DNA from: Candidatus Cloacimonadales bacterium
Lineage (GTDB): Bacteria; Cloacimonadota; Cloacimonadia; Cloacimonadales; JAIOQZ01
DNA: 64,000 nucleotides
Direction: 5' to 3'
NCBI GenBank assembly: GCA_963665815.1
Contig: OY762463.1
Span: 2,048,001 to 2,112,000, forward strand
The translations under genes were made by a program, and so were the position numbers. Within the stretch, counting starts at the first letter, position 1. Each line of letters opens with the position of its first letter. Of this stretch, positions 34,311-64,000 are shown piece after piece. The notes under the pieces are model-generated. The model saw only the letters and a list, made by a program, of their open reading frames with translations, had not been told where the DNA came from and ran no database searches.

Positions 34311-34375
34311 GCAGGATTGTTACCGCAATATACATACGGACTGTCAAACTGCTCTGCCGGGTCAAGAGAATGCCA

Positions 34376-35818: not shown

Positions 35819-38800
35819 TTAGTTTCTCCAATTTTGAAATGGGTTACCATAAATATCTCCTCTATAATAATGTTCATATATTTGATGTACAGTATGAGAT
35901 GTTCTAAGATCATAATTACTACCAAGATCATGCTTTCTATAAATATCATTGTGTTTTATATTTGAGTTCTTAATATTAAGCATTATCTGATTTGAGTTAA
36001 GCATTGCATATTGCTCTTTTTTATCCCCTGTACTGAATATGCCGAATACAGGCTTGTGTTTTTCTCTATCTACTATATAAAAATTAGTCTTTCTGTTAAA
36101 TGTATACCAGTGACCTGATTTCCATATATTAGATCTATCAGCATTGCCAGTTAAATCCTGAATATGTGAAAGCTCATGAGTAACAGTTCTTACGTTTGAA
36201 AGAACTTTTCCAGCAGATGTATACGTATTATGAAAGTCTAAGCTAAGATCGAACATGTTATCATCTCCATTAGGTCTAACACAGTTAATTGTACTTGCAG
36301 CGTTTTTCCCTAAACTGGCGTCATGAAGAGTGATAATACTTCCTTTAGCAAGAGCACCAAAAATATCATTCAGAAGTTTTTTCCCTTCTGGTCCTCCTTC
36401 TCCTGCAATTGTTCCAATGCTGTCAACAAAATCGTCAACGAATTCTGCACTATATTGTGCATTGAAATCAAGAAAAAGCAGAGCAAAATCGTCCGCAGTA
36501 TATGCTGTTCCATCTTCCTTTTTAAATCCTTCTTCCTCTAAACGATTTGCTAAGTCAGCGTGTAGTTTTTCCATCTTATCTTTTGACGTTGTACTTGTAT
36601 CTGCAGTTCCATTTCTCCAACCTAGGTTTCTTTTATCAACGAGTGAAAATTCATCATCATAAGATTTCTTTGCTTCCTGCTCAGCCCAAAACAATTTCTC
36701 TTCAATCTGTTCTCTCCTTACAGAAGCACTCCATTCTACATAGCCACCACAGGCATCAATTTCATAATTCAGCATCTGCAATTCAAAATTTTGTGCATAA
36801 TTCCAATCATCCTCAGCATTTAATGACATTCCCCTAAACCCCCGGTACAAACTCTGTAATTTAGCATACTGCTCCTGACGATATGATAATGAGATTGCTC
36901 CGTCAAGCTCTACAAAGTTTGCAGGATTGTTACCGCAATATACATACGGACTGTCAAACTGCTCTGCCGGGTCTAATGAGTGCCACCTACCTATTTGCGG
37001 GTCAAGGAACCGTTTTCCCCAATATATCCAGTTCAAGCCGTGTTCGTCAATAATTTCTCTGTTTTTTCCAATAAATCTGTACTCCGTACTCTGACTGCAG
37101 AGCATCGGTACTTTCATACCAAACGGATAGAATGTGTTATTCTGGATTACCAAAGCAGTACCGTCAGTATTCTCGGTAAACACTACCCGGATATTGCCAA
37201 GGTGGTCTTTAAGTTCATATTCGTATCGCCACTGCTGTTCTCCGACCTGAGCTGTAAAGTCTCTTACCTGCCTTCCGAAAGATGTGTTAATTACAATCTC
37301 ATCCTCAGAAGCAGTGTCTTCTGCATAGTGAGTATATACAAGACCGTTCACATAGTTAACTTTCTGGGTTACTCTGTCGTCTGCTGTAACTATCTTCTGC
37401 AGTCTTTCTCCTGTTGCAGAATACACAAAGCGGATTCTGTTCTTCATATCGTCCGCATCATCCGTGCGCTTAATCATCAGTTCCGGCAGATTAAACAGAT
37501 TGTAGCGGATATCAAATCCCTTGTTCCTGTCTTTAATCATGTTACCGTTTGAGTCGTACAGATATTCGTCTTCCGTACTGCTGCTGAAACCGTCAATAAA
37601 GCCTGTTCCTGTTATGGAAGCATTGTCTGTAACACCAATAAGCCTGTTGCCGCTGTAGGAGTAGGTGAGATCATCTATAGACTGTCTTACACCGTTTTCG
37701 TCCCGAGCAAAACGTCTTAAGCTCTGAATATTGCCATTCTCATCATAGTGCATATTCTCTATGCCGAAGTAGTTGTTTGTATCCCAGGTACTACCGTTCA
37801 AATAAGTGAAATCAGCCTTTTTCATCCTGCCAACACTGTCATAGGAATAAACGTAAGCCATTTTGGAGTAATACTTATCATTCGAGAGTCCCGGCAGCCC
37901 AAAGTTGTCTGCGGTATTCCAGATCACCGCATTAACTCTTCCATCGTGGAAGATATGATCACTGAACGGTTCCATATAGCTTGTAAGCTTTTCACGCATA
38001 ATCTGCATACCAAACAGGTCGGTACCTGTCAACCGCGGATTGTTTATCATTTCCAGTCTGCCGAGATAGTCATATTTAAAGTTAACTGTCTGCAGACCTC
38101 TTTCCTGAAAGTCATAATGGTGTATTCGGGAGAAATCCGTATTAAACGCATCTGTAATAACGGTATCATGAACATGCTTATTAACTGCCGAAACACGACC
38201 GAACTCATCATAATCATATTCTTCTGCCAGAATCTCTTCATCGTTATCAATCTTACAATATGATTTCAGTAGATTTCCAGTTCTGTTGTACACAAATGTC
38301 TTTCTGGTTTCAATATAGGTGTTTTCCACCTGCTGAACCTGCATGGATTTTGTAAGCTGACCGGCCCAGTTATACTCGTTGGTAACTGTCTGCATTCCTG
38401 CCAGATTGTTGTTCTGCGTGTGGATTACCTGTCCTTTCTTATCATAGAATATCACATCTTCAATCCAGCCTGTTCCAAAATATGTCATATCGATATCGGT
38501 TCCAATATCGGCAATCTGTTCTCCGAACATCTCAAAACCAGGACCAATATCTATGGATGATCCTTCGATAATGAATTTCTTGTCAAATGGACAAATATCG
38601 TATATGCCTTCAGGGTACTCACCCAGCTCCATTACTCTTACTTTTGTCATTGTAATTTGACCGGAAGGATATTTGAGGGCATTTCCCGTGTCAAGCTGCT
38701 GAACGGGAGTGAATGTATTGTCGTCAGTTCCGTTTCTGTCACAATCATAGTTATCGTAGTAATTAACACTCCAGATAAAGCAGTTATTGATGTCCGGGAA

Positions 38801-41800
38801 CATATAGTTTGTATATCCCTGCTGGATAACAAAGTTTATCCCTGAAGGAACTTCGTACATATCACCAGTATAGCTGTCGCAATAATTCTGCAGACTGTCT
38901 CTGGAAAGCTTATCGGGATTTTTGAATATACCGGACAATATTGTTCTGCCGTATTGATCATACTTGGAGAATGACCAGTAATCCATTTCTCTCAGTCTGT
39001 TATCCTGTTTCAGAACTATTCTGCCGTAACGGTCATAGACAACGTCGATTCTCAGATTTCCGGGAAGAGTTTTGCTTATCTGTCTGTTTTTCTCATCGTA
39101 GCGGAATGTAGTCATATACATTTCCTGCTGAGCCTGTGTAATCTCGGTTGCACCGGATAGACTGAGAATCTGAGATAATGCAGGGGATATTTCTCCGCAT
39201 AAACGCCCATATTCATCATATATGTAGCTTCTCTCAAGAATTGCACTGCTGGTAAAGGTAGTCTTGGAAATAAGCCTGCCAATTCTATCTTTCTGAATAA
39301 CGACTCCGTTATTATCTTTGTCAATAGTATTTGAATATGAAAGTTCATCAGGTTCGAACAGTCTTGATTTTACAAATGAACTGTCACCTTTGGTCCATCC
39401 CATACTGCAGTTGCTCTGAGTTCCATAATATCTATTTACATAGTATTCACTGATGGATAATGTAGGTTTTTCTGATCTTGTAACTCGCATTCGCAAAGAT
39501 TTTTCATACTCGAAATTCGATGAGTAGTTTATCGCATTGTAGTAATTATCATAACAAGGCTGTACGCAATTATCTTTTACAAACCTGCCATTGAAGTATG
39601 AAATTGGAACAGGTGGATATTTTTCTTTTTCCACTCCATTAAGATCATAAACATGTTTTTGAAGAATATGTTTTGTATCATCTTCCATGTTATATTTAAC
39701 TGATTGTGTTTTTTTACCGTAACATGTCATAAACTCAAAGCTTAGTGACGGATTAACAAGATATGCAATATTATCAATTCCGGTGTTTTGTCCGGTAATT
39801 ATAAAACCTGTTATGTCACAATTATAGTCTGCCTTGTTAAGCTCTACATCTGCATTAATACATGTACCGTCAATATACAGGTCAATCATGTCATAAGCCG
39901 TACTGGAATCAGTTTTTCTGATCACGAACATATAATGGTGCCATTCATCCGCAGGCAGGTTAACTCTATATGGAACGCTGGTTTCTCCGCTGTACCAGAG
40001 AATTTCATTGTTTGCAGTTCTGCTTATCTTCTGACCGGGACCGTTATAAATGACTTCAACAGCATCTGTATTATTTTCACCTCCGAGTGTCGCTTCGAAT
40101 TCGATTATCAGATTTTTGTTAACAGTACTGAAATTCCTGTGCAGCAGTCCTATGTTTTCTACCGAGGAGCCATGCAGGTATTTCCTTAATGAGTCTATTT
40201 CCGGAGTACCATCAATATACCAGTCTTCCGTCCATTTATTCTGGTCGAAAGATTCGTAGAAACCTTTGTCCAGAGTGGAAGCGGAGATACCTAAATTTTT
40301 ATTCAATTCAGCGTATACTAAACTTGGATTGGAACAACCTGCAGGAACGTATATCTGGGTGTTCTTTGTTTGATTCATAAAGACATTTGTTGATGAATAA
40401 GGAACACCATCTGTGTCCAGAGTATGACACTTTTCATCAAGATAATTGTACGTTGTATATGTAATGTGATTATGTGAGTTGGTTGTAGATGTGTGTCTGC
40501 TAAGCACATTATCACTAGTGTAAGATGATAGTCTGGCATCAACAGGAGCAATTCTCAGGTTATCAAGCAACTGATAATCGCCCTCGCTTGCCTGATCAAG
40601 TCCTATTTCAATAGTCACATACGTATTTTCTAAAGGGCAACTCTGGTTATCATGAGTATAGAAAAACTCTTTCAGTTCCCACTCCAGTTCCGATATTGGT
40701 GATGAATTGAAACTTGCAGTCACACTACCTGTATACGTATCCGTTAATATTAACTCTATATCTTTGTCAGATGCAGTATTATGTTTTTTCTGCCAGTAAG
40801 AAATCTTGTATGTTTTACCATAATAGAAATTCATCTTAAAGAGATTTCCTGTATGACTTACTTTCATTGATTTCTCTCCGGTCTTACCGGATCCATATTC
40901 TATTTCAAAAGGGCTTCCAGTCAGCATATATGGTGTATGATCAATAACCAGATTGTCCGGATACTCAAAACTCTCAGCAAGGACTTCTTCCGGTTCACAT
41001 ACTTGAGACGTAAACAGAGGCAGTCCGTTTTCCTGATTATAGAATATATTAGATTTAATATGATTATCTCCAATTTGGCTGACAGGCCTCATATGTTCAT
41101 CATACTCCAGGATTAAACTCTTTCTGTGCCAGTCACCGCAGAATTCCGGGTAATTGGAAGGTATGGATGGCAAATATGACAGTGCGTCAGGATCACCTTT
41201 ATACTTGTAAGTAGCTTTTATAGCCCACTTTCCGTCAAACAAATCCCAGGCAATAAATGAGTCAGAAGTAATTCTGTTGTCTGTTTTGGTTGTAATCTGT
41301 ACAATGGAATTGGAAATCGGAGCACCGGGGTCGCTATACACTTCGTCCCAGTATCTGTTTGAAACAATGACTGTCGGATAACCGGTTCTGTATTTCTCAA
41401 CTTGTGTAAGTCTTCCGTTAGTTTCATCGTATCTGTACATAGATGTTTCAGGATAACCATCAACAGTAGATATTTTCTTGTGTAATACAATTTTTTTTCT
41501 TCCATCAATATAAAGTAATCGGTAGAAGTTCTGAGTTTCCGAGAATAAATTGTCATCATCATCGTAGACAAGAGAGTGCATCTTTTTTCCTCTCAGCAGG
41601 TCTTTTCTGTGCAGGGAATCTACAAGTGAAGCTGATGGAAAATTCTCATATCCATTGTAGTATCTTGTCAGAACATACCCAAGATCATCATTAACCTGCT
41701 TTTTTACTTCGCAGTAAGAAGCGTTTGTTCCCATAACATTCATCTTGGCAGTGTCGCAATTGTAATCGTAGGTGATTTTCTTTACACGCACTGAGTTGTT

Positions 41801-45772: not shown

Positions 45773-45786
45773 ATTTCCCCCGGGAT

Positions 45787-46890: not shown

Positions 46891-47253
46891 TTTTCCTCCA
46901 ATATTGATGCATTATATTTGAATTAAGTTTTTATTTTATTTCCTACATAAATTTTACCTTCATTTTTGTTTGTTCTAGTTATTAAAAGTATACATTGAAA
47001 TGTCAATATTTTTTTAAATTGCAAATTTTAAGGCTTAATGATACATTTTAAAGAAATTGTTATGTCTTTATTATAGTATTGCTGCTCTAAGTTAAATTGT
47101 ACAAATGGAATTCCAATAATTGCACCTTATCACAAATTATTTATGACTTGGGATCTTCACTATTTCTTACATCGAGCATTATACAATTTTTTCCTCATCA
47201 GAAATATTGACTTCAAAAACACTTTTAATATTCTTTGCAATATTGGAGGAATT

Positions 47254-47667
47254 ATGAGAAAATATAACATGATTAACTCAAATAAAGGTTTTTCATTGAT
47301 GGAAATTCTGATAGTTATTGTCATTATCGGAATACTTGCCACCCTGGCAGTACCTAAATACATGAGTATAACCAGAAAAGCTAAAGAAGCCGAAGCAAAA
47401 CTAATGCTTAATCAGGTGCATACATTGCAGGAATCATATTATTCGGAAAATGATGTTTATGCTGACACTATAGAAAAACTGGGCTTTGAACATGAAAAAC
47501 TGATCTCCGACGGTGGTAAGGCAAGATTCAGAATTGCTATAGAAAAAGGAAACATGGAATCTTACAAAGCAACTGCAACCTCAATTGTTGACTTTGATAA
47601 AGACGGTAATTTCAGTGTATGGGAAGTAGACGAAGAAGGCAAAATCACAAACGTTAATCCAGACTAA
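47254..47667 (+). CDS. Major (pseudo)pilin, GspG/PilA-like
   Basis: GFSLMEILIV class III signal; start after GGAGG; VDFDKDG..VW tail. Confidence 0.9.
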   Translation: MRKYNMINSNKGFSLMEILIVIVIIGILATLAVPKYMSITRKAKEAEAKLMLNQVHTLQESYYSENDVYADTIEKLGFEHEKLISDGGKARFRIAIEKGNMESYKATATSIVDFDKDGNFSVWEVDEEGKITNVNPD

Positions 47668-47670
47668 TCA

Positions 47671-49821: not shown

Positions 49822-50900
49822 GAATTAACAAAGAAAAACAAAGCCGAATGAGCCTTCTGAAAAAGCTGAAATCAGCAAAGATTGTGCTTGATTTTACTAA
49901 AAGTCTGTCAGTGCTACTTAATGCCGGCATACCTCTGGTAAAAGCTCTAACAACTCTGATGCAGCAGGCAGAAGATTCTGATTTCAAGCCTGTTCTGAAA
50001 AGTATCATTAACAGGGTGAATAAAGGGAAGACCTTTTCAGAGGCTTTGACAAAGCATATAGAATACTTCGATGCAATGTACATACATATTGTTTCTGTTG
50101 GAGAAAAGACAGCAAAACTGGGACTTGTTCTGGAGAAGCATGCTGACTATCTACTCAAAATCCGCAAGATGAAACAGCGTCTTATGTATGCAATGCTGTA
50201 TCCGGCAATAATTATTGTATTCTCATTTCTGGTTGTAACCTTTCTGATATTGTTTCTTTTCCCAACAATCAGTGAAATATTTACTGAGTTCAACACTAAG
50301 ATTCCTACAATCACAAAATTTATTCTTCAGATAAACGAGAACTTCCCGACAATATTGTTCTCAATCATTGGTATTATAGTAATAAGTGTACTGTTTTTTA
50401 AGTATAACAAGCTCTCACCCGAATCAATCGCAAAACTCCATAGATTTCAGATGAGGATTCCCTTAATCAATAACATTATCCTTCAGAATACTATGTCTCG
50501 TCTATGCAGGACAACCGGACTTTTGATAGAAAGCGGTGAATCACTCAGTCAGTCATTGAGAATAGGTCTGAGAGTTATAAATAATCAGTATCTGAAGAAG
50601 AAAACAAAGATTATTCAGAAACAGGTTAAATCGGGATCATCTCTCAACAAAGCATTCGCAAAGACAGGCATTTTCCCGCAAATGGTATTGCAGATGGTAG
50701 AAGTTGCCGAACAAAGTGCAAACTTGAGTGAAATACTTGTGTATATTGCAGATCAGTATGATTCTGAACTTGACAAAACAATAGATGCATTAAGTTCTCT
50801 CTTAGAACCAATATTGATATTATTTATTAGTGTAATTATAGGAGGAATAGTAATCGCTCTGTATCTGCCGTTGTTTGATATGGTAACGATTGCTGCGTAG
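49818..50900 (+). CDS. gspF: Inner-membrane platform protein GspF/PilC
   Basis: LLNAGIPL, VGE.T..L, AMLYP, LLEP..LYLPLF. Confidence 0.92.
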   Translation: MRINKEKQSRMSLLKKLKSAKIVLDFTKSLSVLLNAGIPLVKALTTLMQQAEDSDFKPVLKSIINRVNKGKTFSEALTKHIEYFDAMYIHIVSVGEKTAKLGLVLEKHADYLLKIRKMKQRLMYAMLYPAIIIVFSFLVVTFLILFLFPTISEIFTEFNTKIPTITKFILQINENFPTILFSIIGIIVISVLFFKYNKLSPESIAKLHRFQMRIPLINNIILQNTMSRLCRTTGLLIESGESLSQSLRIGLRVINNQYLKKKTKIIQKQVKSGSSLNKAFAKTGIFPQMVLQMVEVAEQSANLSEILVYIADQYDSELDKTIDALSSLLEPILILFISVIIGGIVIALYLPLFDMVTIAA

Positions 50901-50907
50901 GAGAATT

Positions 50908-52062: not shown

Positions 52063-52067
52063 ATGAG

Positions 52068-54155
52068 GTGCAGATGAAAAGAATTTTAGCATTGATAATT
52101 CTCGTTATGACTCTGAACATGTTTGCTGCTGATGATAAAGGCTTAACTCCGATCATCAATTACAGGGACTTGAAAAAGAGAGAGGCAGAAAAGAAAAAAG
52201 AGACTCCGAAGGTAGTTAAAAAGGAAGTAAAGAAACCAGCTAAGACAGAGCCCAAAAGAGAAAAAGTTAGCAGAGATAAAATTAAGAAAACTGATTTGCT
52301 TGATCTGGATAAACTACCGGAAAATGTTTTCTATAAAATAAACAGGCTGAACGTCAATGATCTGAACATTAAAGATGTTCTTCGTGGAATTGCAGTTGAA
52401 TACAAGATTAATCTGATTGTTGAGGAATCCATTAACAAGAACATTACAATTTCTCTCTCTGACATCAGCGTTATAGACTGCATTCTCTTTTTATGCGATG
52501 AGTACAACCTTGATATTCACCAGAACAGAGCAATACTGAGAATTACTGATGCTGTCATTGAGAAAGAAACTATCGGAGAGATTGAGCCTAATGAAATTAT
52601 CATTCACAATGATACTCTGACAGTTGATTTCAAGAATAAAGATGTCCAGCATGTACTTAAGACTATGTCAAAACTGAGTGGAAAGAATATTGTCTTCAAT
52701 AACTCGATTCAAGGCAGAATTAACGGATTTCTCAGAAATGTTGATTTCGAAGCAGGGCTGAAAATCCTTATGGAAAACAGTGGATTTACTCTTAACAAAA
52801 AGAATGGAATCTACTATGTAACAGTTGACGCTCAAGCCCAAAATAAGCAGAGACCAGGGTCCGCTCGCAGATCAGGTGTATGGATTACAGTTAATGAAGG
52901 GAAAATCTCATTTGATGTGAACAATGCAGACATCACCAGAATCATCAATGACATTTCTCAGGAACTCGATATAAGTATTATCACATACGGTTCACCCAAA
53001 GGAACACTTACAGCTAAATGTAAAGATCTGGATATCAATACAGCATTAAATATTATCCTGAAGGGAACTGAATTTACTTATAAAGAGGATAACGGAATTT
53101 ATGTTGTAGGCAATAAAAGCATAAGCAGTCTGATTTCCTCTAAACTGATAAAATTAAAACACATCAAAGCTGACGGGATAACTGCCCTGATTCCTGAGAC
53201 AATCATGAAAAATGCGACTCTCAAGGTAGTTAAAGAACAGAATGCTCTTATGGTAATATCCACCAATGATATTATTTATGATCTTGAAAGCTATATAAAA
53301 CAGATAGACTTACCAACTCCACAGATTCTGATAGAAGCTCTGGTTGTAGACTTTAATACATCGGATATACGTGATCTGGGAGTAATGATGGGCGTAAATA
53401 CAGCCCTCGGAGATTCATCTTCTTCATTCAAAAACTATTCTCTTCTGGATGTTGGTTTTGATAAAGACGGAAGATTATATTCTCAACAGAATGCACACTC
53501 TCTGAATAAAGGTCTTGAGCAGGTAAGTAAATGGGCAGGAGTGAAGAACATTGGAGTACTTCCGTCAAATTTCTATGCCAAGATTCAGGCTTTGGAAAGC
53601 GAAGGAAAAGCAAATGTAAAGTCCAAACCTCAGATTGCAACCTTGAACGGGCATGAGGCTAATATATCCGTTGGTACGACACAGTATTACATACTTAAAT
53701 CTACTACTCCAATAAAAAGTAATGATGATGTTATTACTCAGGAATCGGAGAAGTTTGAAGAAATAACAGCAAATGTCACTCTAACTATTGTTCCCTGGGT
53801 CGGATCATCAGGAGATGTAACTGTGGAGGTTCATCCTGAATTCAAAACTCCGGTAGGTTCATTTAATTCTTCCACTCCGCCAACGATTAACGAACGTTCT
53901 CTCGACTCTACAGTCAGGCTGAAAGACGGTGAAACAATCATTATGGGTGGACTGATTCAGGAATCAAACTCAAAGACATTCAAGAAAGTCCCAATTCTGG
54001 GAGATATTCCGCTTATCAAACACCTTTTCCGTTTTAAAGGACGCAACAACAGCAAGACAGAGTTAATGATATACATTACTCCACATATCTTCTATGGTGA
54101 TGAAAATGATTCTAAAAAATGGGAACTGATAAAAAGCGAATACGAGAAGAAATAA
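52068..54155 (+). CDS. gspD: Secretin GspD/PilQ
   Basis: Signal peptide; IDLP.PQILIEA, P.IATLNG..A.I.VG, KVPILGDIP..LF, ELMIYITP. Confidence 0.93.
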   Translation: MQMKRILALIILVMTLNMFAADDKGLTPIINYRDLKKREAEKKKETPKVVKKEVKKPAKTEPKREKVSRDKIKKTDLLDLDKLPENVFYKINRLNVNDLNIKDVLRGIAVEYKINLIVEESINKNITISLSDISVIDCILFLCDEYNLDIHQNRAILRITDAVIEKETIGEIEPNEIIIHNDTLTVDFKNKDVQHVLKTMSKLSGKNIVFNNSIQGRINGFLRNVDFEAGLKILMENSGFTLNKKNGIYYVTVDAQAQNKQRPGSARRSGVWITVNEGKISFDVNNADITRIINDISQELDISIITYGSPKGTLTAKCKDLDINTALNIILKGTEFTYKEDNGIYVVGNKSISSLISSKLIKLKHIKADGITALIPETIMKNATLKVVKEQNALMVISTNDIIYDLESYIKQIDLPTPQILIEALVVDFNTSDIRDLGVMMGVNTALGDSSSSFKNYSLLDVGFDKDGRLYSQQNAHSLNKGLEQVSKWAGVKNIGVLPSNFYAKIQALESEGKANVKSKPQIATLNGHEANISVGTTQYYILKSTTPIKSNDDVITQESEKFEEITANVTLTIVPWVGSSGDVTVEVHPEFKTPVGSFNSSTPPTINERSLDSTVRLKDGETIIMGGLIQESNSKTFKKVPILGDIPLIKHLFRFKGRNNSKTELMIYITPHIFYGDENDSKKWELIKSEYEKK

Positions 54156-55444
54156 TGGTTCCATATTTATCCAAAACTATTACAGCCATATCGTTCGACG
54201 ATAATCTGCTGAGAATTCTTACCTGTAGAAGAACGCTGAATAAAACCGATATTCTTGTTAAAGAACAGGTTGAGCTGCATGATGAGAACCTATGTGAAGC
54301 CGTACAGGAACATGTAAAACTCAGAAACGATTCTCTGTATATGCTGCTTCTTCCTGATTCTCTCGTGGAGACTATGGTTATAGATGTCCATGAACAGCTT
54401 GATGAAGATGAACTTGATGACTGGATTCATGATCACTGGGTTGCAGGAATTACAGAAAATCCTGAGATTTATCAATACAGGTACATGCAGTTAAACGAAG
54501 AAAAATTCCTTGTTGCATTTATTGAGAAAACAATTATAAAGCAGCATACAGAACTGTTCAAAAGAATAGGAATCGATTTGTTTTTCATTGGAGCTTCTTC
54601 TTTAACAATAGGCTCAGTTCTTGCAGAAGACGAAAAACTGAAAAGTAAGCATATCTGTATTTCCAAAGCTATTGGTGAAGACATGTCGTTATACAGCGTG
54701 TTCCATGAAAGTAAACTAATTGATTTTGCTGTTGAGGATAATCAGACCAGAATTACTGATTTTATGCATGTAGACGAACAGATAAAGAGTGACAACCTGA
54801 AGGATCTGGAAATCTCAGGAGTAACAGGTGACTTTTTCTCCAACTACGGGGCAATTCTGGAATACTACAATACAAAATCAGTTAGTCTTAACTTTGCTGA
54901 GGATAAGGACAAGGCTTTTGTCTCAATTGCCAGATTCAACACAACAAAACTCCTGATGCTTCTGGTTTTTGCTTTCGCTGTTGTGTACGGTATCCCCGGA
55001 ATAAGTAATTTACTGCTGAGTAATACTCTCAGTTCACAGTCGGAGCAACTTGCAGTGCTGAAAGACAAAACGTCTCTTCTGAAGAAAGAAGAAAAGGCTA
55101 TTGAAGAAATGAATAATGTCTTCAGGCAGACAAACAAGCTTAGCAATAAGAAATCAGAAATGGCAGCTTATCTGGAAGTTATTGGAAAACATCTACCGGC
55201 AGATACCTGGCTGACTGATCTTGATATAGAAAACACTGACAACAACACTATAGTAACAGTAGAGGGTTATTCCTTCGCAAATACAAAAGTATCTGCTTAT
55301 CTGCAGAATCTGGAGAAAACAGAGATCTTTTCCTCCGTTAAGTTTCAGAAGATGGAGCATATCACAAAGGATTTCCCGGTTGAAGTCTCCAATGCAAGCA
55401 GTATGTACATTTTTACAATTGAGCTGAAGAGAGGTGAAAAATGA
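54155..55444 (+). CDS. GspL-like (PilM/PilN-like fusion)
   Basis: Cytoplasmic domain, one TM, coiled coil, LP.DTWLT.L..VEG PilN-like tail. Confidence 0.75.
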   Translation: MVPYLSKTITAISFDDNLLRILTCRRTLNKTDILVKEQVELHDENLCEAVQEHVKLRNDSLYMLLLPDSLVETMVIDVHEQLDEDELDDWIHDHWVAGITENPEIYQYRYMQLNEEKFLVAFIEKTIIKQHTELFKRIGIDLFFIGASSLTIGSVLAEDEKLKSKHICISKAIGEDMSLYSVFHESKLIDFAVEDNQTRITDFMHVDEQIKSDNLKDLEISGVTGDFFSNYGAILEYYNTKSVSLNFAEDKDKAFVSIARFNTTKLLMLLVFAFAVVYGIPGISNLLLSNTLSSQSEQLAVLKDKTSLLKKEEKAIEEMNNVFRQTNKLSNKKSEMAAYLEVIGKHLPADTWLTDLDIENTDNNTIVTVEGYSFANTKVSAYLQNLEKTEIFSSVKFQKMEHITKDFPVEVSNASSMYIFTIELKRGEK

Positions 55445-55959
55445 CACATTCAACTCGATTCTGGCAAATGCTTTCCATTGTGGGAGGAGTATTGATCCTT
55501 GTTCTGCTGAAATCATTAGCTATCCCTGAAGTTATTACTCTTACAGGTAATATAAAGCAGATCACTGTTAATAAAAAACTGATTGAACAGAGTATCAACT
55601 GGGAAGAAAACCTGCAAAGTCTGCGAGTCAAGAAGAAAAGGCTTGAGAATAAGTATCAGGATGTGATAAGCAGAAACTCTTTCCGTAACACTGCCGATAT
55701 CCCTGTTCTGATTGATCAGGTATGCAAGAAGAACAACGTCAGCCTTGTAAAGATGCAGCCTGTTTCCGAGACAAAGAAACAGCAATACACTATCGCTGTG
55801 ATAGAAGCCGAGATCAACGGATCATATAAGGATTCCGGACTACTGATTGAGGAACTGGAACAACTCCACGATAATATCTATATCAGTCAGATTGAGATGA
55901 CTACAGAGAGTAAACAGCTTCATACTAAGATTGTGTTTGAGACAACGCTAATATACTGA
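55441..55959 (+). CDS. GspM/PilO-like protein
   Basis: N-terminal TM, coiled coil, GSY..LIEELE. Confidence 0.7.
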   Translation: MTHSTRFWQMLSIVGGVLILVLLKSLAIPEVITLTGNIKQITVNKKLIEQSINWEENLQSLRVKKKRLENKYQDVISRNSFRNTADIPVLIDQVCKKNNVSLVKMQPVSETKKQQYTIAVIEAEINGSYKDSGLLIEELEQLHDNIYISQIEMTTESKQLHTKIVFETTLIY

Positions 55960-55977
55960 TGAGAAGGACATACTCTA

Positions 55978-56448
55978 ATGAATAAATACAGAAAATTGTT
56001 CACCGTGTTACTGATAATTGCCGCTATAGTTGTCTGGGGATCGTTCTTTGTGAGAGTAAAACAGGCAAAGGCAGAGGACAGCCAACAGACAGCATCCATA
56101 GACAATAAAGTAATTGAAACCACCAGAACTGACAGCCTGAACATAGATTTTATGGGTAGTTTCCGTGATCCGTTTGCCCACACTCCTGCTCCAGTGGAAA
56201 AGAAAAAAGAAACCCAGCCAAAGCATTACCCAAAACCAATTGTCCAGCGACCAGACATAAATATTACCGGTGTAATAGGTAAAACCCTGATACTTGAGTT
56301 TAAAGGTAAATCCATGGTGCTAAGCCAGGATGAACAGGCAGAATTCGGGCTGATATACAGCATAGAACCTGACTCTGTTATAGTGCAGGTTAAAGATAAC
56401 TTTTTTACCTATAAACTGGCTAAGGACAACAGGATGGAGTTGGAGTAG
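55978..56448 (+). CDS. PilP/GspC-like protein
   Basis: N-terminal TM, RDPF motif, ITGVIG beta domain; last gene of the cluster. Confidence 0.65.
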   Translation: MNKYRKLFTVLLIIAAIVVWGSFFVRVKQAKAEDSQQTASIDNKVIETTRTDSLNIDFMGSFRDPFAHTPAPVEKKKETQPKHYPKPIVQRPDINITGVIGKTLILEFKGKSMVLSQDEQAEFGLIYSIEPDSVIVQVKDNFFTYKLAKDNRMELE

Positions 56449-56503
56449 CGGAATAATAATCCCATTAGAATAAAACCACGAAACCCACTAAAAGACACGA
56501 AAG

Positions 56504-56530
56504 AAAAAGCCAGAAAACATGTTTCTGGCT
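56504..56530. terminator. Right-array terminator family (also 58985-59013, 60417-60443, 62816-62842)
   Basis: AAAGCCAGAAAACATGTTTCTGGC hairpin at cassette ends. Confidence 0.75.
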
Positions 56531-56747
56531 AAGATATTATTACAGCTTAAAAAAGCTTACTGCTTTTGTTCTTTGTTGAGCATGCTCTCTAATTCATCAA
56601 AAATACTCATTTCCTTTTCTGAGAAATCAACTTTGAAATTTGAAATTGGATTCATCTCCTTTTTTACAAACCAGCTCTTAACTTTCTTAGTTACATTAAC
56701 ACCTACATCCGTTAGTACTTTTATTCCAGCCTTTATCCCTTTATGAC

Positions 56748-57197
56748 TTACTGAACCCAATCGACAGATTCTAAGCAAGTCATGGATTCCTTTGAAATAA
56801 CAGTATCACGATAAAAATCAATTTCTTTCAAAAGATATTTTATTCCCCCTAACCATTCAATATCTTCTTCCTTTCGTGCAATTGTAATTGCATTTTCAAT
56901 TTTGCTTATATCAATCAATGTTTTATTAGATTCTATTAGTAAGATTATATTTTGTGTCCCTGGCCAGTTTATATCCTGAAACCATTCAAGCAACAAATCA
57001 AAATTCTCCTGAACTTTTTCAAAATCTACTTTCCCTAGGAAAATAGATAATTTATACAATAACATTGTGCCTCGTACGAAAAATAGTTGTCTTAATAAAT
57101 TATCATCCGAACTATTGATCTCATTCAAAAGCTTGTTCATCTGTGAAAGATTATCTAAATCTAATTCTTCAAATTGTTTTCTAATTCTTTGTTTCAT
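56748..57197 (-). CDS. DUF5071-like putative immunity protein
   Basis: LLEWFQDINWPG motif recalled from that family. Confidence 0.6.
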   Translation of the reverse strand: MKQRIRKQFEELDLDNLSQMNKLLNEINSSDDNLLRQLFFVRGTMLLYKLSIFLGKVDFEKVQENFDLLLEWFQDINWPGTQNIILLIESNKTLIDISKIENAITIARKEEDIEWLGGIKYLLKEIDFYRDTVISKESMTCLESVDWVQ

Positions 57198-57261
57198 ATT
57201 GATTATCCTTATCATTTTATGGTTATAGATTGAAGTACTTTTGTCAATGGATGTGGACAAG

Positions 57262-57349
57262 TAAAGCTGTGTTACCTACGTACAATCCATCCTCCTTACT
57301 CCATATTATAGCTAAATTGAGCTCAGTAGTGGCAAATGGTCAAGGAAAT
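57262..57349 (-). promoter_or_regulatory. Repeated promoter/RBS module (also 58850-58925, 60270-60358)
   Basis: Minus strand TTGACC..TATAAT..TAAGGAGG-N5-TTG. Confidence 0.6.
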
Positions 57350-57398
57350 ATTGTTAAAAAGGGATAATCCCATTTGGATAGAACAACAAAAATAAGAT

Positions 57399-57514
57399 CA
57401 GACATAAACATAACCGGTGTAATAGGTAAATCCATGGTGCTAAACAAGGATGAACAGGCAGAATTCGGACTGATTTACAGCATAGAACCGGAATCTGTTA
57501 TAGTGCAGGTGAAG
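57399..57514 (+). pseudogene. Internally deleted copy of the 3' part of gene 55978-56448
   Basis: Matches about 56252-56395, with a deletion between two AGGTAAA repeats. Confidence 0.85.
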
Positions 57515-57521
57515 GTATACG

Positions 57522-57543
57522 AAAGCCCCTCGAAAGGGGTTTA
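57522..57543. terminator. Terminator-like hairpin
   Basis: AAAGCCCCT-CGAA-AGGGGTTT. Confidence 0.6.
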
Positions 57544-57568
57544 TAAATATTGATAAATTTTACCATAT

Positions 57569-57898
57569 CTAACTACTGAGTGCTTTGTATAGTAGATGGA
57601 CTAAGAACCCCATCGCTCCAATAAAAATTGAAGCTACCACACAAAAAACATAAATCCTCAAAGCAATGATGAAATAATACAATGACTTCCTATCACTTGT
57701 TGAATTTTTACATGCATCCTTAAGTTGTCTGAATGTTGGTCTATTATCAAGAAAATTCGAGGAGTTTAAGTTTTTGAAATCATTTTTATTATTCTTTTGG
57801 CTCAATAAATAAAATTCCTCATCAGTAAAATATATAAACCACTCAATAACAAAAGAAACTATCATCAAAAGTACTGCAATCACAGAGAAAATTCCCAT
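57569..57898 (-). CDS. Small 2-TM membrane protein, putative immunity
   Basis: Follows a Gly-rich CT; same architecture as 20295 and 22205. Confidence 0.65.
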   Translation of the reverse strand: MGIFSVIAVLLMIVSFVIEWFIYFTDEEFYLLSQKNNKNDFKNLNSSNFLDNRPTFRQLKDACKNSTSDRKSLYYFIIALRIYVFCVVASIFIGAMGFLVHLLYKALSS

Positions 57899-57908
57899 TT
57901 TATAGTCC

Positions 57909-58793
57909 TCAATCTAATTCATTAATAAGTTCTTGATCAACTGTGGTTCCATTCCCAGGTAGATTAACTGGTCCAATAATCTTGTTAGTCAACGACTGGC
58001 AGCTATTTTTAAAGTCATAATAATGTTTTTGAACCTGATAATAGAATTTGGATTCCCAAGAGTATGGAGCATTTTTATCTATTTCAGTCTTTGAATGATC
58101 AATATAAGCACTTGATCCTTTTGCTTTTCCCATACTTATGTTAAAACCAACGTACCATTTATCTAATTCTCTATCACGTATTATGTTCACTTCAGCACCA
58201 AAAAGTTGAATTATCGGATGTTCGGTTAAACCTGATACACCTATGTTTAGACCACGTCCAAGAAGAGAATTGGGGTCATTTGTACCGAAAAGAAATCCAA
58301 AACCTCCAGAAAGACCTACACCTCCTGCATAAGATCCTCCTTTAGAATCTGTACTGAATTGAATACCTTTGAAACCATTATCGTACCCAATTGCTCTACC
58401 AACTAGATACTCTTCAGTGTAACCCACATTCCATCTAGCTGAAGTAAATGCATATGCTACAGCTCTCCCATCCGGGTCAACAAAAATAATAGGATTGTTA
58501 GCACAATACACATAAGGGCTAAAGAATTCATCCGCCGGGTCAACTGCATGCCAGCGTCCTAACTCAGGGTCGTAATAACGCACTCCGTAGTGGTAGCTGT
58601 GAGCTTGCAGGGCATAGCCCGAAAGTCTCCAAAAATGAGCTCGTAGCCTCAGGCGAGAGTCTCCACTCCGAAGTTCGTAGGACGTGAGTCCGAGAACCAT
58701 AGGAGGTACATTATTCCCATCCTCATGCTCTTTTCCGTTATACAGGAACTTGTTGTCCTGCCCGGTATCAGAGGACATTCCACCCAGTCTCAT
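57909..58793 (-). CDS. Orphan Rhs core (hairpin insert in frame) + Gly-rich CT
   Basis: YNGKE..RYYDPELGRW..NNPIIFVDPDG. Confidence 0.85.
   Translation of the reverse strand: MRLGGMSSDTGQDNKFLYNGKEHEDGNNVPPMVLGLTSYELRSGDSRLRLRAHFWRLSGYALQAHSYHYGVRYYDPELGRWHAVDPADEFFSPYVYCANNPIIFVDPDGRAVAYAFTSARWNVGYTEEYLVGRAIGYDNGFKGIQFSTDSKGGSYAGGVGLSGGFGFLFGTNDPNSLLGRGLNIGVSGLTEHPIIQLFGAEVNIIRDRELDKWYVGFNISMGKAKGSSAYIDHSKTEIDKNAPYSWESKFYYQVQKHYYDFKNSCQSLTNKIIGPVNLPGNGTTVDQELINELD
58597..58715. repeat. Tandem-hairpin element, copy 5 (3 units)
   Basis: In-frame insert NVPPMVLG..LQAH. Confidence 0.88.
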
Positions 58794-59052
58794 ACCAAAT
58801 GGGTAATAGTGGATAATAATGATCTTCCTGTAAATTCGTTACGTTATTTCCTACGTACAATCCAGCCTCCTTACTCCATATTATAGCTAAATTGCACTCA
58901 TTAGCTGGAAACGGTCAAGAAAATATTTTCGAGATTACAATCCCATGAAGATAGAACCACGAAATACACTAAATGGCACTAAAGAAAAAGCCAGAAAACA
59001 TGTTTCTGGCTTTGCAAATTTGACTAAACTAATATTATATTTTATGCTTTCT

Positions 59053-59442
59053 CTAGTCCTTTTGTTTCGCGTAAATCATTTTGATTTTTAAAACTTTATC
59101 ATACCATGGATTATCTTTTCTTGCAATTAAATAATGTATAAATGCAGGAATAGGTGTAATACAATAAATGAGTTTTAAGACTAAACGAAGCAAAATTTTC
59201 TTGTTGCTTATTTTACCTTTTCTCTCAACATCAATTAAGCAAATATTGAATAACATCATGCCAAAAGTTTCCCCTTTTGAAAAAAAAGGCAAGACAATAT
59301 GATTGAAAAAGAAAAGCGAAAAAATGACATAGGGAGGACCAATGAAGTCCTTTGAATATGACTCAATTAAGTGTCCTAAAACAAAAATTATTATTGTTTC
59401 AAGATAGAACAATAAGAATCTTGGAATAAGTTTTACTATCAT
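59053..59442 (-). CDS. RDD-family membrane protein, putative immunity
   Basis: RFLLFYLE, GETFGM..I, LLR, WYDK; start after GAGGAG. Confidence 0.75.
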   Translation of the reverse strand: MIVKLIPRFLLFYLETIIIFVLGHLIESYSKDFIGPPYVIFSLFFFNHIVLPFFSKGETFGMMLFNICLIDVERKGKISNKKILLRLVLKLIYCITPIPAFIHYLIARKDNPWYDKVLKIKMIYAKQKD

Positions 59443-59531
59443 ATAATTACTCCTCATTTGGCCACAATTCCATTGGAGGTACTTTTAGCTCAACTCCTCC
59501 TCCAACAATTACACCTGCTTTCAGTCCTATA

Positions 59532-60293
59532 CTATGATCTCCCCCCCCAATCATGTCCATAGGAAACTCCAGCACCAATAGTGCCTATATCCCCATGTAA
59601 CCTCAGGGATGATCCATCATCATGGGTACTCTTGATACCAAGCTCTAGAGTAGTTACTGCAGCTTCTGCAGCAAATTTCAAACCACTTGTTCCTCCGACT
59701 GCTTTTCCTTTCAAAGATAATTTTGCGAAGTTTTTATCATAATCAAAATGTGCTCCTTCAGCATATGGATTAATAATTTTCCCCTCTTCCTTTACTGCCT
59801 GAGCTTCAAAACTCCCTTCAAAACCAAGTCTATCAAGACCAATATGAAATTTTATCTCACCTTTTATAACCCATTCCTTTGTAACTGTTCCATCCCAGAA
59901 TCTACTAATATTAATATATTTCTCATCTAATGTAAATGGAATTTCAAAAGCCCCATCCGGATCAAGGAAGTTCACCGGGTCGTTGTGGCAATACACATAA
60001 GGACTAAAGAACTCATCAGCCGGGTCAACTGCCATCCAGCAATGAGCTTGCAGGGCATAGCCCGAAAGTCTCCAAAAATGAGCTCGTAGCCGCAGGAGAG
60101 AGTCTCCACTCCGAAGTTCGCAGGATGCAAATCCGAGAACCATAGGAGGTACATTACTCTCATCTTCAAACTCTTTGTTGTTGTAGAGGAATTTGTTATC
60201 CACACTATTGTTAACGGATAATCCCGGAATCCTCATCCCGAACGGATAGTAATGATCTTTCTGGACTTTTAAAGCTGTGTTTCCCAGATACAA
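59532..60293 (-). CDS. Orphan Rhs core + Gly-rich CT, apparently frameshifted at a G8 tract
   Basis: DPVNFLDPDG; removing one G extends the frame to the stop at 59447. Confidence 0.8.
   Translation of the reverse strand: MYLGNTALKVQKDHYYPFGMRIPGLSVNNSVDNKFLYNNKEFEDESNVPPMVLGFASCELRSGDSLLRLRAHFWRLSGYALQAHCWMAVDPADEFFSPYVYCHNDPVNFLDPDGAFEIPFTLDEKYINISRFWDGTVTKEWVIKGEIKFHIGLDRLGFEGSFEAQAVKEEGKIINPYAEGAHFDYDKNFAKLSLKGKAVGGTSGLKFAAEAAVTTLELGIKSTHDDGSSLRLHGDIGTIGAGVSYGHDWGGRS
60040..60160. repeat. Tandem-hairpin element, copy 6
   Basis: In frame; also replaces YHY..LGR of the core. Confidence 0.88.
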
Positions 60294-60506
60294 TCCATCC
60301 TCCTTACTCCATAATATAGCAAAATTGCACTTATTAGCGGCAAATGGTCAAGGAAATTGTTCACTTGATTATAATCCTATTAGTATGAAGACATGAACTA
60401 CACTTTAGGACAAAGGAAAGCCAGAAAACGAGTTTCTGGCTTTGAAACAAAATATAGTTATTTAGCTTTATATGCTCCATGAAGCAATTTACGGTTAGTG
60501 TTTGAC

Positions 60507-61217
60507 TTATCGGTAATCAACATCAAAGGAAACATTTCCTTCAAATGTAGTATTTGCTGAAGACATTCTTGTATGTATTGATACTTGTCTAATTTTAAGT
60601 ATATTATGGATAATTTCAGAATTAAAAGTGAATTCTGTAGAATTTTTCATGTTTTCATTTGATAATTCTGATGTACATCCCTCTAGTACAATTAAGCTAT
60701 CAACAGTATTATAAGTATATGAAATAATGGATGATATATTATTATCTGTGACAGATTCCCTAATCAAAATATTATTCCCTTTTCTATTTACCTCATAGTC
60801 ATTTTCTTCTGACAAAATATTGAAGTAGTGTTCAAAAGACAAAACTATATATTCTTGAAAGGCGGTAATTTGATTTTCTATGCTGATATTTACTTGATTA
60901 AGACCATCAGCTTGCTGTTGAGATAGCTTTGATTGCTCTATAAAGAATATTTTTGGAGGTTCGACAATGAAATTCCCATCAACGTATTTTAGAATATAAA
61001 GTATGCTATCTGGTGATTCAATGTTGCCTTTTGCAAATCCATCCAACTGTTTTTCTGTATTAAGATAAAGTCTTTTAATCTCGTTGCATGAAATCTCTAC
61101 ATTTTTGTATTGATTAAGAAACTTCTGATTTAGAACCAGTTTATCTGTTATATCTCTAATATTATCACCATACAGCTTTGATATGAAAATTAACATTATT
61201 AATAATGAGAATCTCAT
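60507..61217 (-). CDS. Exported hypothetical protein
   Basis: Signal peptide; resembles the 21427 ORF. Confidence 0.6.
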   Translation of the reverse strand: MRFSLLIMLIFISKLYGDNIRDITDKLVLNQKFLNQYKNVEISCNEIKRLYLNTEKQLDGFAKGNIESPDSILYILKYVDGNFIVEPPKIFFIEQSKLSQQQADGLNQVNISIENQITAFQEYIVLSFEHYFNILSEENDYEVNRKGNNILIRESVTDNNISSIISYTYNTVDSLIVLEGCTSELSNENMKNSTEFTFNSEIIHNILKIRQVSIHTRMSSANTTFEGNVSFDVDYR

Positions 61218-61693
61218 AGAACATCCTTATCGTTTTTTAATAGTAATATGTTTTTGAAAAAATGTCTTAACATAATTACAGTGATTTTGTATCCAGATTG
61301 GTTCGAAATTAATGTATATAGCATAAGAAATGATAACAGGAGTAAAAAAGGAATCCAAAGAGAATACACTATATGGGCACTAAGTATAAGAGAGAAAATG
61401 GAATAAGATATACTCCAATAAAATCTGAAACGCAAAGTATAACTATGCTTCAATCTTATATCTATATTAAAACCGGAAATAATCATATTTTCTGAGGTTT
61501 GAGATGTAATATATTCACCAAAACTTAGATATTGATTATGTCTCTTACCAGAAAAAATGAGCATATTAAAAAGGGGAGGAATCAGTCCTATAAAAATAAC
61601 TAAATTAATGTTGTTTTCTGTTAGAATAGATGCAATGAAACAAAAAATAAGTAAAACCATTGTATCAATTGCGAATGAGATAAATCCTTTCAT
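61214..61693 (-). CDS. Multi-TM membrane protein, putative immunity
   Basis: About four hydrophobic segments; GGAG RBS; follows a CT. Confidence 0.65.
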   Translation of the reverse strand: MKGFISFAIDTMVLLIFCFIASILTENNINLVIFIGLIPPLFNMLIFSGKRHNQYLSFGEYITSQTSENMIISGFNIDIRLKHSYTLRFRFYWSISYSIFSLILSAHIVYSLWIPFLLLLSFLMLYTLISNQSGYKITVIMLRHFFKNILLLKNDKDVL

Positions 61694-61705
61694 TTTTTCT
61701 CCTTT

Positions 61706-63998: not shown

Positions 63999-64000
63999 TA

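Follow-up and report, generated by a model that had tools for sequence, protein, structure and literature searches.

How giant polymorphic toxins, among them Rhs proteins that carry signal peptides, cross the outer membrane of diderm bacteria outside type VI secretion systems (T6SS) is an unanswered question. An earlier survey assigned such toxins to a 'general secretory pathway' or a 'TcdB/TcaC pathway', its accessible text naming no outer-membrane machine (PMC3482391; papers with a PMC number are cited here for their accessible parts). A second question concerns the 'Bacteroidetes type II secretion system (T2SS)', a machine derived from the type IVa pilus (T4aP) whose cargo is unknown (PMC6668835). 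Here we analyze a 64,000-nucleotide stretch of a Candidatus Cloacimonadales genome (the window; assembly GCA_963665815.1, contig OY762463.1, positions 2,048,001 to 2,112,000), in which an operon for a fibre-like secreted protein (FIB) and a 3317-aa Rhs protein stands divergent from a ten-gene operon for a type IV filament machine. The linkage joins the two questions, both of which are testable in cultured Balneolaceae. We find that functional coupling of the machine and the Rhs protein is well supported and, with a probability of roughly 0.55, we read the locus as one instance of a module conserved in the FCB group (Fibrobacterota-Chlorobiota-Bacteroidota), in which a type IV filament machine would be coupled to giant Sec-exported Rhs toxins, resembling the B and C (BC) subunits of Tc toxins, that it would export or display.

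From about 11.5 kb to its end, the window consists of two Rhs arrays with the machine operon (47255-56448, plus strand) between them and the FIB-Rhs operon on the minus strand. Open reading frame (ORF) and family scans confirm this arrangement, which had been described in an initial annotation made from the letters alone; both Rhs toxin-immunity arrays are real, but the left one lies mostly outside the segment 35819..64000 to which that annotation referred, reaching 11486.

Rhs genes are linked to the machine under many phylum labels

We approached the link between machine and toxin through the outer-membrane secretin. An alignment of 24 secretin homologues, scanned against species-representative genomes, yields 191 pattern matches, 183 of which are confirmed relatives; the best 80 of these 183, each with flanks of up to 10 kb per side, make up the loci compared here and sample Cloacimonadota, Balneolota, Rhodothermota, Bacteroidota, Zixibacteria, KSB1 and other lineages. 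Their 4236 ORFs of at least 60 aa were searched with the window proteins and with three local iterated hidden Markov models (HMMs), made from the first 360 residues of the giant Rhs protein (Ndom), its Rhs part, and FIB. A locus is called Rhs-positive when an Ndom match, or an Rhs match in an ORF of at least 200 aa, lies within the flanks. The initial annotation had held that homologous clusters usually lacking Rhs neighbours would speak against its reading; we find that 49 of the 80 loci, and 35 of the 44 that are at least 18 kb long, are linked to Rhs (51/80, and 33/39 of those of at least 21 kb, under a looser count), while the three HMMs give no hit at all on the 4236 ORFs in reversed form.

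Linkage occurs under at least seven phylum-level record labels, with positives in 8/8 Cloacimonadota, 15/19 Balneolales (14/14 of the long loci), 9/13 Rhodothermia, 6/13 unspecified Bacteroidota, 2/3 Zixibacteria and 2/5 KSB1/'Deferribacteres' loci. An independent Pfam check of 19 giant neighbours, drawn from 140 large ORFs, agrees with the family assignment, with RHS_repeat passing in 17/19 and DUF6443 in 15/19. The Ndom match is always N-terminal (residues ~40-330), in ORFs of 1700-2700 aa, and a hydrophobic stretch plus an Ala-X-Ala-like site immediately precedes the domain in 37 of the 38 Ndom ORFs. The T9SS (type IX secretion system) sorting domain Por_Secre_tail is absent from the giant Rhs protein, FIB and all 19 giant neighbours.

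On a FastTree phylogeny of the 80 secretins (L033 left out as too short), Rhs-linked loci fall in both main branches, the linked or not-linked state changes only 7 times, and the nine long loci that lack Rhs are scattered tips. The window secretin lies in the starred clade with all 8 Cloacimonadota loci.

Gene order varies while the linkage stays

The position of the Rhs gene relative to the machine genes differs by lineage, and the linkage stays. The nearest machine gene lies on the same strand as the Ndom ORF in 31 of 38 cases. In L003 and L004 the Rhs gene starts 31 nt past the last machine gene, in L012 and L015 it comes 6-24 nt behind the platform gene, and other loci have larger gaps of ~730-1100 nt; in L007, L010, L038 and L040 it is divergent from the machine, as it is in the window. 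Balneolaceae place Rhs after the pilin gene with one ORF between, and because the ORF that fills the larger gap is a prepilin peptidase in 9/9 cases tested, most lineages would own the peptidase that is missing from the window cluster. FIB homologues (16 ORFs in 12/80 loci) sit between the platform and ATPase genes in L001, L003 and L004, upstream of the ATPase gene in L002 and L007, and directly before Rhs in L018, L030, L038 and the window. The far-side flanks, by contrast, are unrelated among lineages and include NACHT, TPR, helicase, ABC permease and T9SS-substrate genes. One such gene, at L006:4641-7568 in a Cloacimonadota locus, adjoins the machine and encodes a protein of 975 aa whose C-terminus bears a T9SS sorting domain.

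Several loci stand out in other ways. Two whole machines, each with its own giant Rhs, occur in one genome in L012/L015 and again in L003/L004, the latter from one metagenome-assembled genome and near-identical (99% and 100%), which may reflect a recent duplication or an assembly duplicate. At L062:2-8218 the giant neighbour, which the end of the contig truncates at the N-terminus, is not of the TcB-N-domain type; it is a teneurin-like YD-shell protein that carries numerous Ig-like and glucodextranase-B domains.

Another explanation is that machine and Rhs have no functional link and simply share a recombination or island hotspot, or a mobile island. Rhs loci are established hotspots of recombination, the machine is much slower to diverge than the Rhs N-domains, and the window itself has, at the left array's far end, a tRNA-Val gene, an integrase gene and an excisionase-like gene (9162-10840). 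A hotspot of this kind, however, would have to account for a linkage that recurs across no fewer than seven phylum-level labels and on both secretin-tree branches, kept despite differing gene orders and mostly with genes co-oriented and adjacent, while the remaining flanking genes are not conserved; a second att copy (the tRNA-Val 3' end), searched for across the window, is not found. We consider this explanation highly improbable.

The giant Rhs protein resembles a fused TcB-TcC cocoon with a Sec signal

The giant Rhs protein begins with a Sec-type signal peptide and a TcB/SpvB-type shell domain (aa ~25-350), followed by a long middle region that matches no family, an Rhs/YD region (aa ~2130-2960) and a ~360-aa C-terminal domain with an HExxH motif. 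The Rhs-associated core (TIGR03696) scores 45.3 bits against a cut-off of 32.5 at aa 2882-2958, and Pfam RHS_repeat scores 19.5 bits, below its 22-bit cut-off; Pfam SpvB is not detected in this protein, and an iterated HMM of the middle region (aa 361-2130) finds no seed matches. Sequence search of the PDB with phmmer gives SGS1 at 1.4e-16, and YenC2, RHS2 and TccC2 over ~200 aa of the last Rhs part. Signal peptides were judged by eye and hydrophobicity only; by these means the Sec signals initially ascribed to both FIB and the giant Rhs protein stand as signal-peptide-like segments.

The character of the N-terminal domain emerges from its predicted fold. An AlphaFold2 (AF2) model of aa 18-450, made from 36 sequences, reaches a pLDDT of 80.1 and a pTM of 0.80, and Foldseek matches it to SGS1 (2.3e-13), YenB (4.4e-12), TcdB2-TccC3 (1.6e-11) and the N-domain of SpvB (5.5e-10), the last three with query-normalised TM-scores (TMq) of 0.43-0.55, matches to T6SS Rhs proteins and teneurins being far weaker; a protein atlas also offers SpvB as a lead, and no more than a lead, for this domain. 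Because they combine a Sec signal with an N-terminal shell domain of TcB/SpvB type, the giant Rhs proteins are best modeled as fused BC-type cocoons, so that the initial 'Rhs cocoon' holds as to family and is corrected to a predicted single-chain, TcB+TcC-like cocoon with a Sec signal. The conserved N-domain was also considered as a dedicated secretion or docking signal, a candidate that we dropped, its fold being that of a TcB-type shell segment. No TcA-type family (VRP1, TcA_TcB_BD) and no FG-GAP propeller is found by Pfam among 47 window ORFs or the 19 giant neighbours.

Residues 1-450 match 20 giant proteins (2170-3174 aa) in a large protein collection, mostly with DUF6443, RHS_repeat or TEN_YD-shell domains, and those that are named are called 'RHS repeat-associated protein'. 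In a collection of 5.8 billion proteins the giant Rhs has no identical entry, the best match to residues 1-450 being 30% identical over 93% of the query, and the window secretin is found there at 100% identity; gene callers may have missed or split the giant gene.

FIB, encoded by the first gene of the Rhs operon, starts with a signal peptide, shows motifs resembling those of tail fibres in its N-terminal part, and carries at its C-terminus a conserved helical or coiled-coil domain. It has no Pfam, NCBIfam or PDB sequence match, its nearest atlas clusters are named 'Tail fiber domain-containing protein' (again a lead only), and its AF2 model, from a 15-row alignment, is poor (pLDDT 50.2) and confident in the C-terminal helices only.

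The machine fits T2SS and T4aP families about equally

The ten machine genes are co-directional, neighbours being separated or overlapping by a few bases (Table 1). Of the window's proteins, 47 ORFs were scanned with Pfam and 40 of these (all ORFs in 11486-63998) also with NCBIfam. The GspD-, GspE-, GspF- and GspG-type parts match their generic Pfam families; at the equivalog level T2SS and T4aP models all stay under cut-off, with scores roughly equal between the two sets. The ATPase scores 542.1 bits with GspE (cut-off 630.25) and 526.2 with PilB (675.65), the platform protein 276.4 with GspF (424) and 242.7 with PilC (700), and the secretin 230.5 with PilQ (284.35) and 196.4 with GspD (351.35); the major pilin reaches 44.2 bits with GspG (88.85) and 71.2 with PilA, each under cut-off. 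PDB sequence matches tell the same story, the ATPase matching PilB at 6e-124, GspE at 1e-117 and PilT only at 1e-35, and the secretin matching GspD at 1e-30 and PilQ at 3e-30. The preference for T2SS over T4aP in the initial annotation therefore falls away, and because both equivalog sets score alike and below cut-off, we name the machine only a T2SS/T4aP-like type IV filament machine and, going by these scores, type it no further. Its individual labels fare unevenly: pilin, F, E and D are borne out by Pfam, while L, M and C follow from PilN and PilO domains and gene position only.

The details of the parts are as follows. The major pilin ORF is listed from 47143, and a GGAGG ahead of 47255 points to 47255 as the likely true start; homologues of 135-147 aa occur in 56/80 loci. 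The 446-aa minor pilin scores 22.2 bits with PilX_N, below the 25.5-bit cut-off, and 19.7 bits with GspK, and has homologues in 33/80 loci. The ATPase is the core only, lacking an N-terminal extension, and the secretin begins with several N0/STN-type domains and has its nearest named homologues in Candidatus Cloacimonadota. In the alignment complex PilN (47 bits) and PilO (30.4 bits) exceed their cut-offs, with no family for the PilM-like and PilP-like parts; the 441-aa protein appears to consist of a cytoplasmic portion and, across a single membrane segment, a PilN domain in the periplasm, the predicted topology of a GspL-like protein or a PilM-PilN fusion. The 156-aa protein matches no Pfam or NCBIfam family and no PDB sequence, and has homologues in 36/80 loci. 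Neither the N-terminal part of the 441-aa protein nor the 446-aa pilin finds a useful match in a PDB sequence search. The window cluster has neither a prepilin peptidase nor a retraction ATPase, and no second, PilT-like ATPase (E < 1e-10) is found in any of the 80 loci, PilT elsewhere in those genomes being possible.

A machine so close to T4aP could be a pilus for contact, adhesion or DNA uptake, co-inherited and co-regulated with the toxins, that pulls a neighbour near or takes up its DNA after killing, with Rhs leaving by lysis, vesicles, T9SS or another translocon. The best Pfam match of the major pilin is ComP_DUS, a family of DNA-uptake pilins (34.5 bits), the secretin and ATPase fit T4aP as well as T2SS, and Denise et al. 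group the 'Bacteroidetes T2SS' with T4aP (PMC6668835). Export by other means also has its precedents, in the T9SS substrate of L006 and in the classical Tc BC subunits, which exit without a secretin, and the Rhs cargo seems oversized for a secretin, as computed below. Yet a retracting or DNA-uptake pilus sits poorly with 80 loci devoid of a retraction ATPase, and ComEA, ComEC and DprA are absent from the window ORFs scanned; the Rhs C-termini are toxin domains with no T9SS C-terminal domain, and gaps of 6-31 nt amount to operon-level adjacency, tighter than co-regulation requires. On this evidence we regard such a pilus as rather unlikely.

Rhs arrays, candidate immunity genes and cassette scars

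The arrays on either side of the machine hold six orphan core-plus-C-terminal modules, together with fragments of the C-terminal part only, with differing C-termini and interleaved small genes that are candidate immunity genes. In the right array TIGR03696 is found in 4 ORFs (64.3, 54.0, 35.2 and 57.1 bits), and small membrane, RDD and DUF5071 genes interleave the Rhs modules. In the left array, four beta-propeller-like proteins of 410-468 aa, two with weak SBBP matches, come after C-terminal modules bearing HExxH; their N-termini make them candidate periplasmic immunity proteins, and a periplasmic location would fit toxins that cross the producer's periplasm. Two internalin-like leucine-rich repeat (LRR) proteins, with no homologues in the 80 loci, also lie in this array.

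These arrays bear on the possibility that the giant YD-repeat protein serves chiefly as an adhesin associated with the filament or as a regulator of pilus extension. In Bdellovibrio, the RHS-family gene Bd0109 adjoins pilus genes, 3/5 Bdellovibrio RHS elements lie near them, and a Myxococcus YD-repeat mutant is reported to be retraction-defective (PMC3818213); the teneurin-like YD protein of L062, with its Ig-like domains, likewise adjoins a machine. The window Rhs, however, has the full anatomy of a polymorphic toxin, with the orphan modules and interleaved candidate immunity genes just described, and Rhs-core fragments trail the main gene in other loci too (for example L005, L023, L025, L056, L063 and L067), so that an adhesin or regulator appears very unlikely to us.

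The right array also carries traces of its own history. The final ~200 nt of the gene for the 156-aa machine protein, with the terminator behind it, recur in near-complete form after one cassette of the array (Table 1) and in part, at 57367-57513, after another; the hairpin alone follows two more, at 58967-59014 and 60397-60444. These duplicates look like scars of repeated cassette replacement, with the gene end acting as homology arm on the downstream side, and are compatible with an exchange of cassettes among loci that already shared the linked machine-Rhs layout. A ~105-nt in-frame insert, near-identical in the three right orphan cores (~58600-58705, ~60040-60145 and ~62305-62410, minus strand), directly precedes the conserved core motif, and the main gene at 63.5 kb lacks it; the insert has no Rfam match and folds no better than its shuffles (z -0.56).

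Elsewhere in the window, with an overall G+C of ~35% that falls near the outer (left) end of the left array, ordinary genes fill positions 1-9115 (a TonB-dependent receptor, a BACON-domain protein, carboxylases). A promoter scan finds 42 sites against 42.3 in shuffles, i.e. no excess. No VgrG, PAAR, TpsB, TPS domain, TcA, T6SS gene or T9SS C-terminal domain is found among the window ORFs scanned, in keeping with the initial annotation as regards VgrG, PAAR, TpsB and a T9SS signal.

Table 1. Features of the window, with positions counted from its first nucleotide
Feature	Position	Strand	Evidence and remarks
tRNA-Val	9162-9238		Sole Rfam match in window
Tyrosine integrase	9416-10504		Beyond tRNA-Val
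HTH_17 gene, excisionase-like	After integrase, within 9162-10840		Outer end of left Rhs array
Left Rhs array	11486..35815	-	Downstream of giant Rhs
Left-array orphan core plus C-terminal modules	28625-30334, 22501-24105, 18527-20062	-	TIGR03696 46.7, 39.3, 40.6 bits; local HMM
Left-array C-terminal-only fragments	33102-34112, 25545-26531, 15990-17075, 13349-14428	-	Several with HExxH
Left-array beta-propeller-like candidate immunity genes	34535-35815, 24142-25548, 17187-18539, 12101-13333	-	Signal/lipobox-like N-termini
Internalin-like LRR proteins	26776-28611, 30500-33160	-	Signal-like N-termini; between orphan Rhs modules
Giant Rhs polymorphic toxin, 3317 aa	35819..45772	-	TIGR03696; PDB sequence and fold matches
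FIB, fibre-like secreted protein, 367 aa	45787..46890	-	First gene of Rhs operon, 14 nt from giant Rhs
Divergent intergenic region, AT-rich	46891..47254		Between FIB-Rhs and machine operons; sequence reading
Major (pseudo)pilin	47255..47667	+	Class III signal (G|F...E5); N_methyl 30.1, ComP_DUS 34.5 bits
Large minor pilin, 446 aa	47671..49011	+	GspK/PilX-like by N-terminus only
Minor pilin, 115 aa	49004..49351	+	N_methyl 22.8 bits; GspI 26.7 bits, under cut-off
Minor pilin, 170 aa	49309..49821	+	N_methyl 26.8 bits
Inner-membrane platform protein, GspF/PilC family	49818..50900	+	T2SSF 183.6 bits
Assembly ATPase, GspE/PilB family, 390 aa	50890..52062	+	T2SSE 440.9 bits
Outer-membrane secretin, 695 aa	52068..54155	+	Secretin 155.3, STN 41.3, N0 35 bits
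441-aa protein	54119..55444	+	PilN 47 bits at aa 351-437
PilO/GspM-like protein	55441..55959	+	PilO 30.4 bits
156-aa membrane-anchored protein	55978..56448	+	PilP/GspC slot by position only
Terminator-like hairpin	56508..56530	-	Between machine operon and right Rhs array; recurs inside array
Right Rhs array	56748..63998	-	TIGR03696, RDD, DUF5071 matches; modules paralogous
Right-array orphan core plus C-terminal modules	61706-62500, 59532-60293, 57909-58793	-	
Right-array candidate immunity genes	61214-61693, 60507-61217, 59053-59457 (RDD), 57569-57898, 56748-57260 (DUF5071)	-	
Duplicate of machine-gene end and terminator	62545..62846	+	Last ~200 nt of 156-aa machine gene; reference copy 56220-56530
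Main Rhs, 3' end	62874-63998	-	5' end past window edge

Discussion

We propose that Rhs and FIB would reach the periplasm through Sec, as their signal peptides suggest, and that the Rhs protein would there form a TcB/TcC-like cocoon round its C-terminal toxin, as its predicted fold and family suggest. The filament machine would then move it across or onto the outer membrane, a step to which the linkage points, either by T2SS-like piston release or by mounting it at the end of a short (pseudo)pilus in the manner of PilY1-type tip proteins; PilY1 is a tip protein carried out on the T4aP filament. Finally, the variable C-terminal toxin would strike neighbouring cells and the adjacent immunity genes would protect kin, as is general for Rhs systems. 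The machine is proposed as the outer-membrane step for a Sec-exported Rhs because its secretin is the sole outer-membrane channel conserved nearby. The lack of a retraction ATPase in all 80 loci counts for export, and coupling gains from the recurrence of FIB in the machine operon or right before Rhs and from a linkage that survives rearrangement while the far flanks are unrelated. Export or display of Rhs through the machine, which we derive from the linkage, carries the probability of about 0.55 given at the outset.

Several observations weigh against this proposal. A solid sphere of 1718-3317 residues is 7.6-9.4 nm across, and a hollow cocoon larger still, whereas secretin lumens measure ~5.5-8 nm, so that passage of a folded Rhs through the pore is doubtful; display at the tip or surface, or passage in an elongated or partly unfolded form, would sidestep the problem. 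The Ndom, as a predicted structural part of the cocoon shell, offers by its conservation no evidence for a secretion signal, and the T9SS substrate in L006 gives Cloacimonadota a second two-step route. Nine of the 44 loci of at least 18 kb (L011, L036, L054, L069, L070, L074, L075, L077 and L079) have the machine with no Rhs within 10 kb, which tells against the 'dedicated' machine of the initial annotation, and Ignavibacteriota are linked in only 1/6 loci. The machine may be dedicated to Rhs or a general exporter with Rhs as linked cargo.

The statistics call for similar care. The chance of 35/44 would be 2e-20 at a background rate of 0.16 and 2e-11 at 0.3, rates that are assumptions about Rhs density rather than measurements from these genomes, and the figures overstate independence because the species are related; the counts, likewise, cover the best 80 of 183 relatives and do not represent independent events. 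A secretin/Rhs co-phylogeny, which the initial annotation had suggested as a check, does give a positive correlation of Ndom and secretin distances (Spearman 0.33, reached by 3/500 permutations), weak as an argument for function next to the 0.82 between secretin and ATPase. In L012 and L015, from one genome (OZ244956.1), the secretins are 80% identical and the Rhs N-domains 26%. Since the correlations differ so much and this pair agrees, the Rhs partner appears to turn over much faster than the machine, which fits a machine with changing cargo and, equally, hitch-hiking. Throughout, the tie between Rhs and machine is drawn from genes and their sequences.

The components are all of known kinds, and it is their coupling that would be new. 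Closest by its parts list, on which alone we compare the two, is the 'Bacteroidetes T2SS' described in Cytophaga hutchinsonii (chu_3191-3201) and recorded also in, among others, Flavobacterium johnsoniae and Pedobacter. We take it as a precedent: its mutants alter the profile of outer-membrane and surface proteins, its phenotype is in cellulose use (PMC5553014), and Denise et al. place it with T4aP as a possible separate or new secretion system (PMC6668835). Both have a secretin, one ATPase, a platform, a major pseudopilin, divergent minor pseudopilins and, where a Gsp system has GspL/M/C, PilM/N/O/P-like proteins; the Cytophaga system has an A24 prepilin peptidase, unlike the window cluster, and 'rhs' occurs 0 times in the accessible text on it (PMC5553014). 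With the proteobacterial T2SS (Gsp/Pul/Xcp) the machine shares a secretin, one ATPase, a platform, pseudopilins including a large GspK-like one that lacks E5, the two-step route for Sec-exported folded proteins and the lack of a retraction ATPase, but all its Gsp equivalogs are below cut-off, GspC, L, M and N are not recognizable, the secretin has STN/N0 repeats, and the proposed Rhs cargo is far larger than known substrates. T4aP-like are its PilN and PilO domains and its PilQ-like secretin score. As in T4aP with PilY1/PilC, a large Sec-exported non-pilin is encoded with minor pilins, although PilT is absent from the 80 loci and the protein is an Rhs cocoon with a toxin instead of a beta-propeller adhesin.

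Among toxins, the Tc BC subunits (YenB/YenC2, TcdB2-TccC3) share the TcB/SpvB N-terminal shell fold by Foldseek at 4.4e-12 to 1e-10, and the C-terminal Rhs part matches YenC2, TccC2 and RHS2; unlike them, the window Rhs has a Sec signal, candidate immunity genes and the orphan arrays typical of antibacterial Rhs, with no TcA partner and no recognizable TcA-docking propeller among the window ORFs scanned. T6SS Rhs effectors (RhsA, RhsP, Tse15 and others) agree with the window protein in the Rhs core, the polymorphic toxins at the C-terminus, the immunity genes and the orphan arrays. The window protein departs from them by its Sec signal and by an N-terminus of TcB type instead of PAAR type, with no PAAR, VgrG or T6SS genes in the ORFs scanned. 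Zhang et al. 2012 list toxins with a signal peptide, SpvB and RHS repeats in Bacteroidetes and call signal-peptide toxins 'T2SS' in the sense of the general secretory pathway, with no dedicated system (PMC3482391). In their terms the window Rhs belongs to the 'TcdB/TcaC' export class, and 'secretin' and 'pilin' occur 0 times in that accessible text, which reports no link between such toxins and a filament machine. Bd0109, an RHS-family gene beside pilus genes, differs from our case in its Bdellovibrio lineage and Tad/T4aP context and in being read as a pilus regulator rather than a toxin, with no cross-phylum survey in the accessible text (PMC3818213). The TANFOR toxins of Bacteroidetes are also giant, carry Sec signals and have an outer-membrane route deduced from gene neighbourhood, but their N-terminal domain is another one and their neighbourhood indicates T9SS, described in that study as the sole two-step system widespread among Bacteroidetes (PMC7073777). 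In the literature searched, with subscription journals and supplements outside its scope, we find no paper that ties a T2SS or type IV pilus machine to Rhs export or to this neighbourhood; 'DUF6443' returns 0 papers, and the accessible text of a 2026 Serratia paper on T2SS-driven competition contains 'rhs' 0 times.

A bolder version of the proposal, which we offer tentatively and hold to be on balance doubtful, is that a T4aP-derived 'FCB-type T2SS' was ancestrally a toxin-delivery machine that loads a BC-type Rhs cocoon, perhaps with FIB, on the tip of a short filament and pushes it through or beyond the secretin onto neighbours. If so, the filament would serve an antibacterial Rhs cocoon as TcA serves Tc toxins and as the VgrG/PAAR spike serves the T6SS, and would represent a new contact-dependent killing system and a new cargo class for type IV filaments. 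The coupling proposed here, if true, would itself broaden the known cargo range of type IV filament machines and add a further route of interbacterial toxin delivery across little-studied phyla of sediments, digesters and saline habitats.

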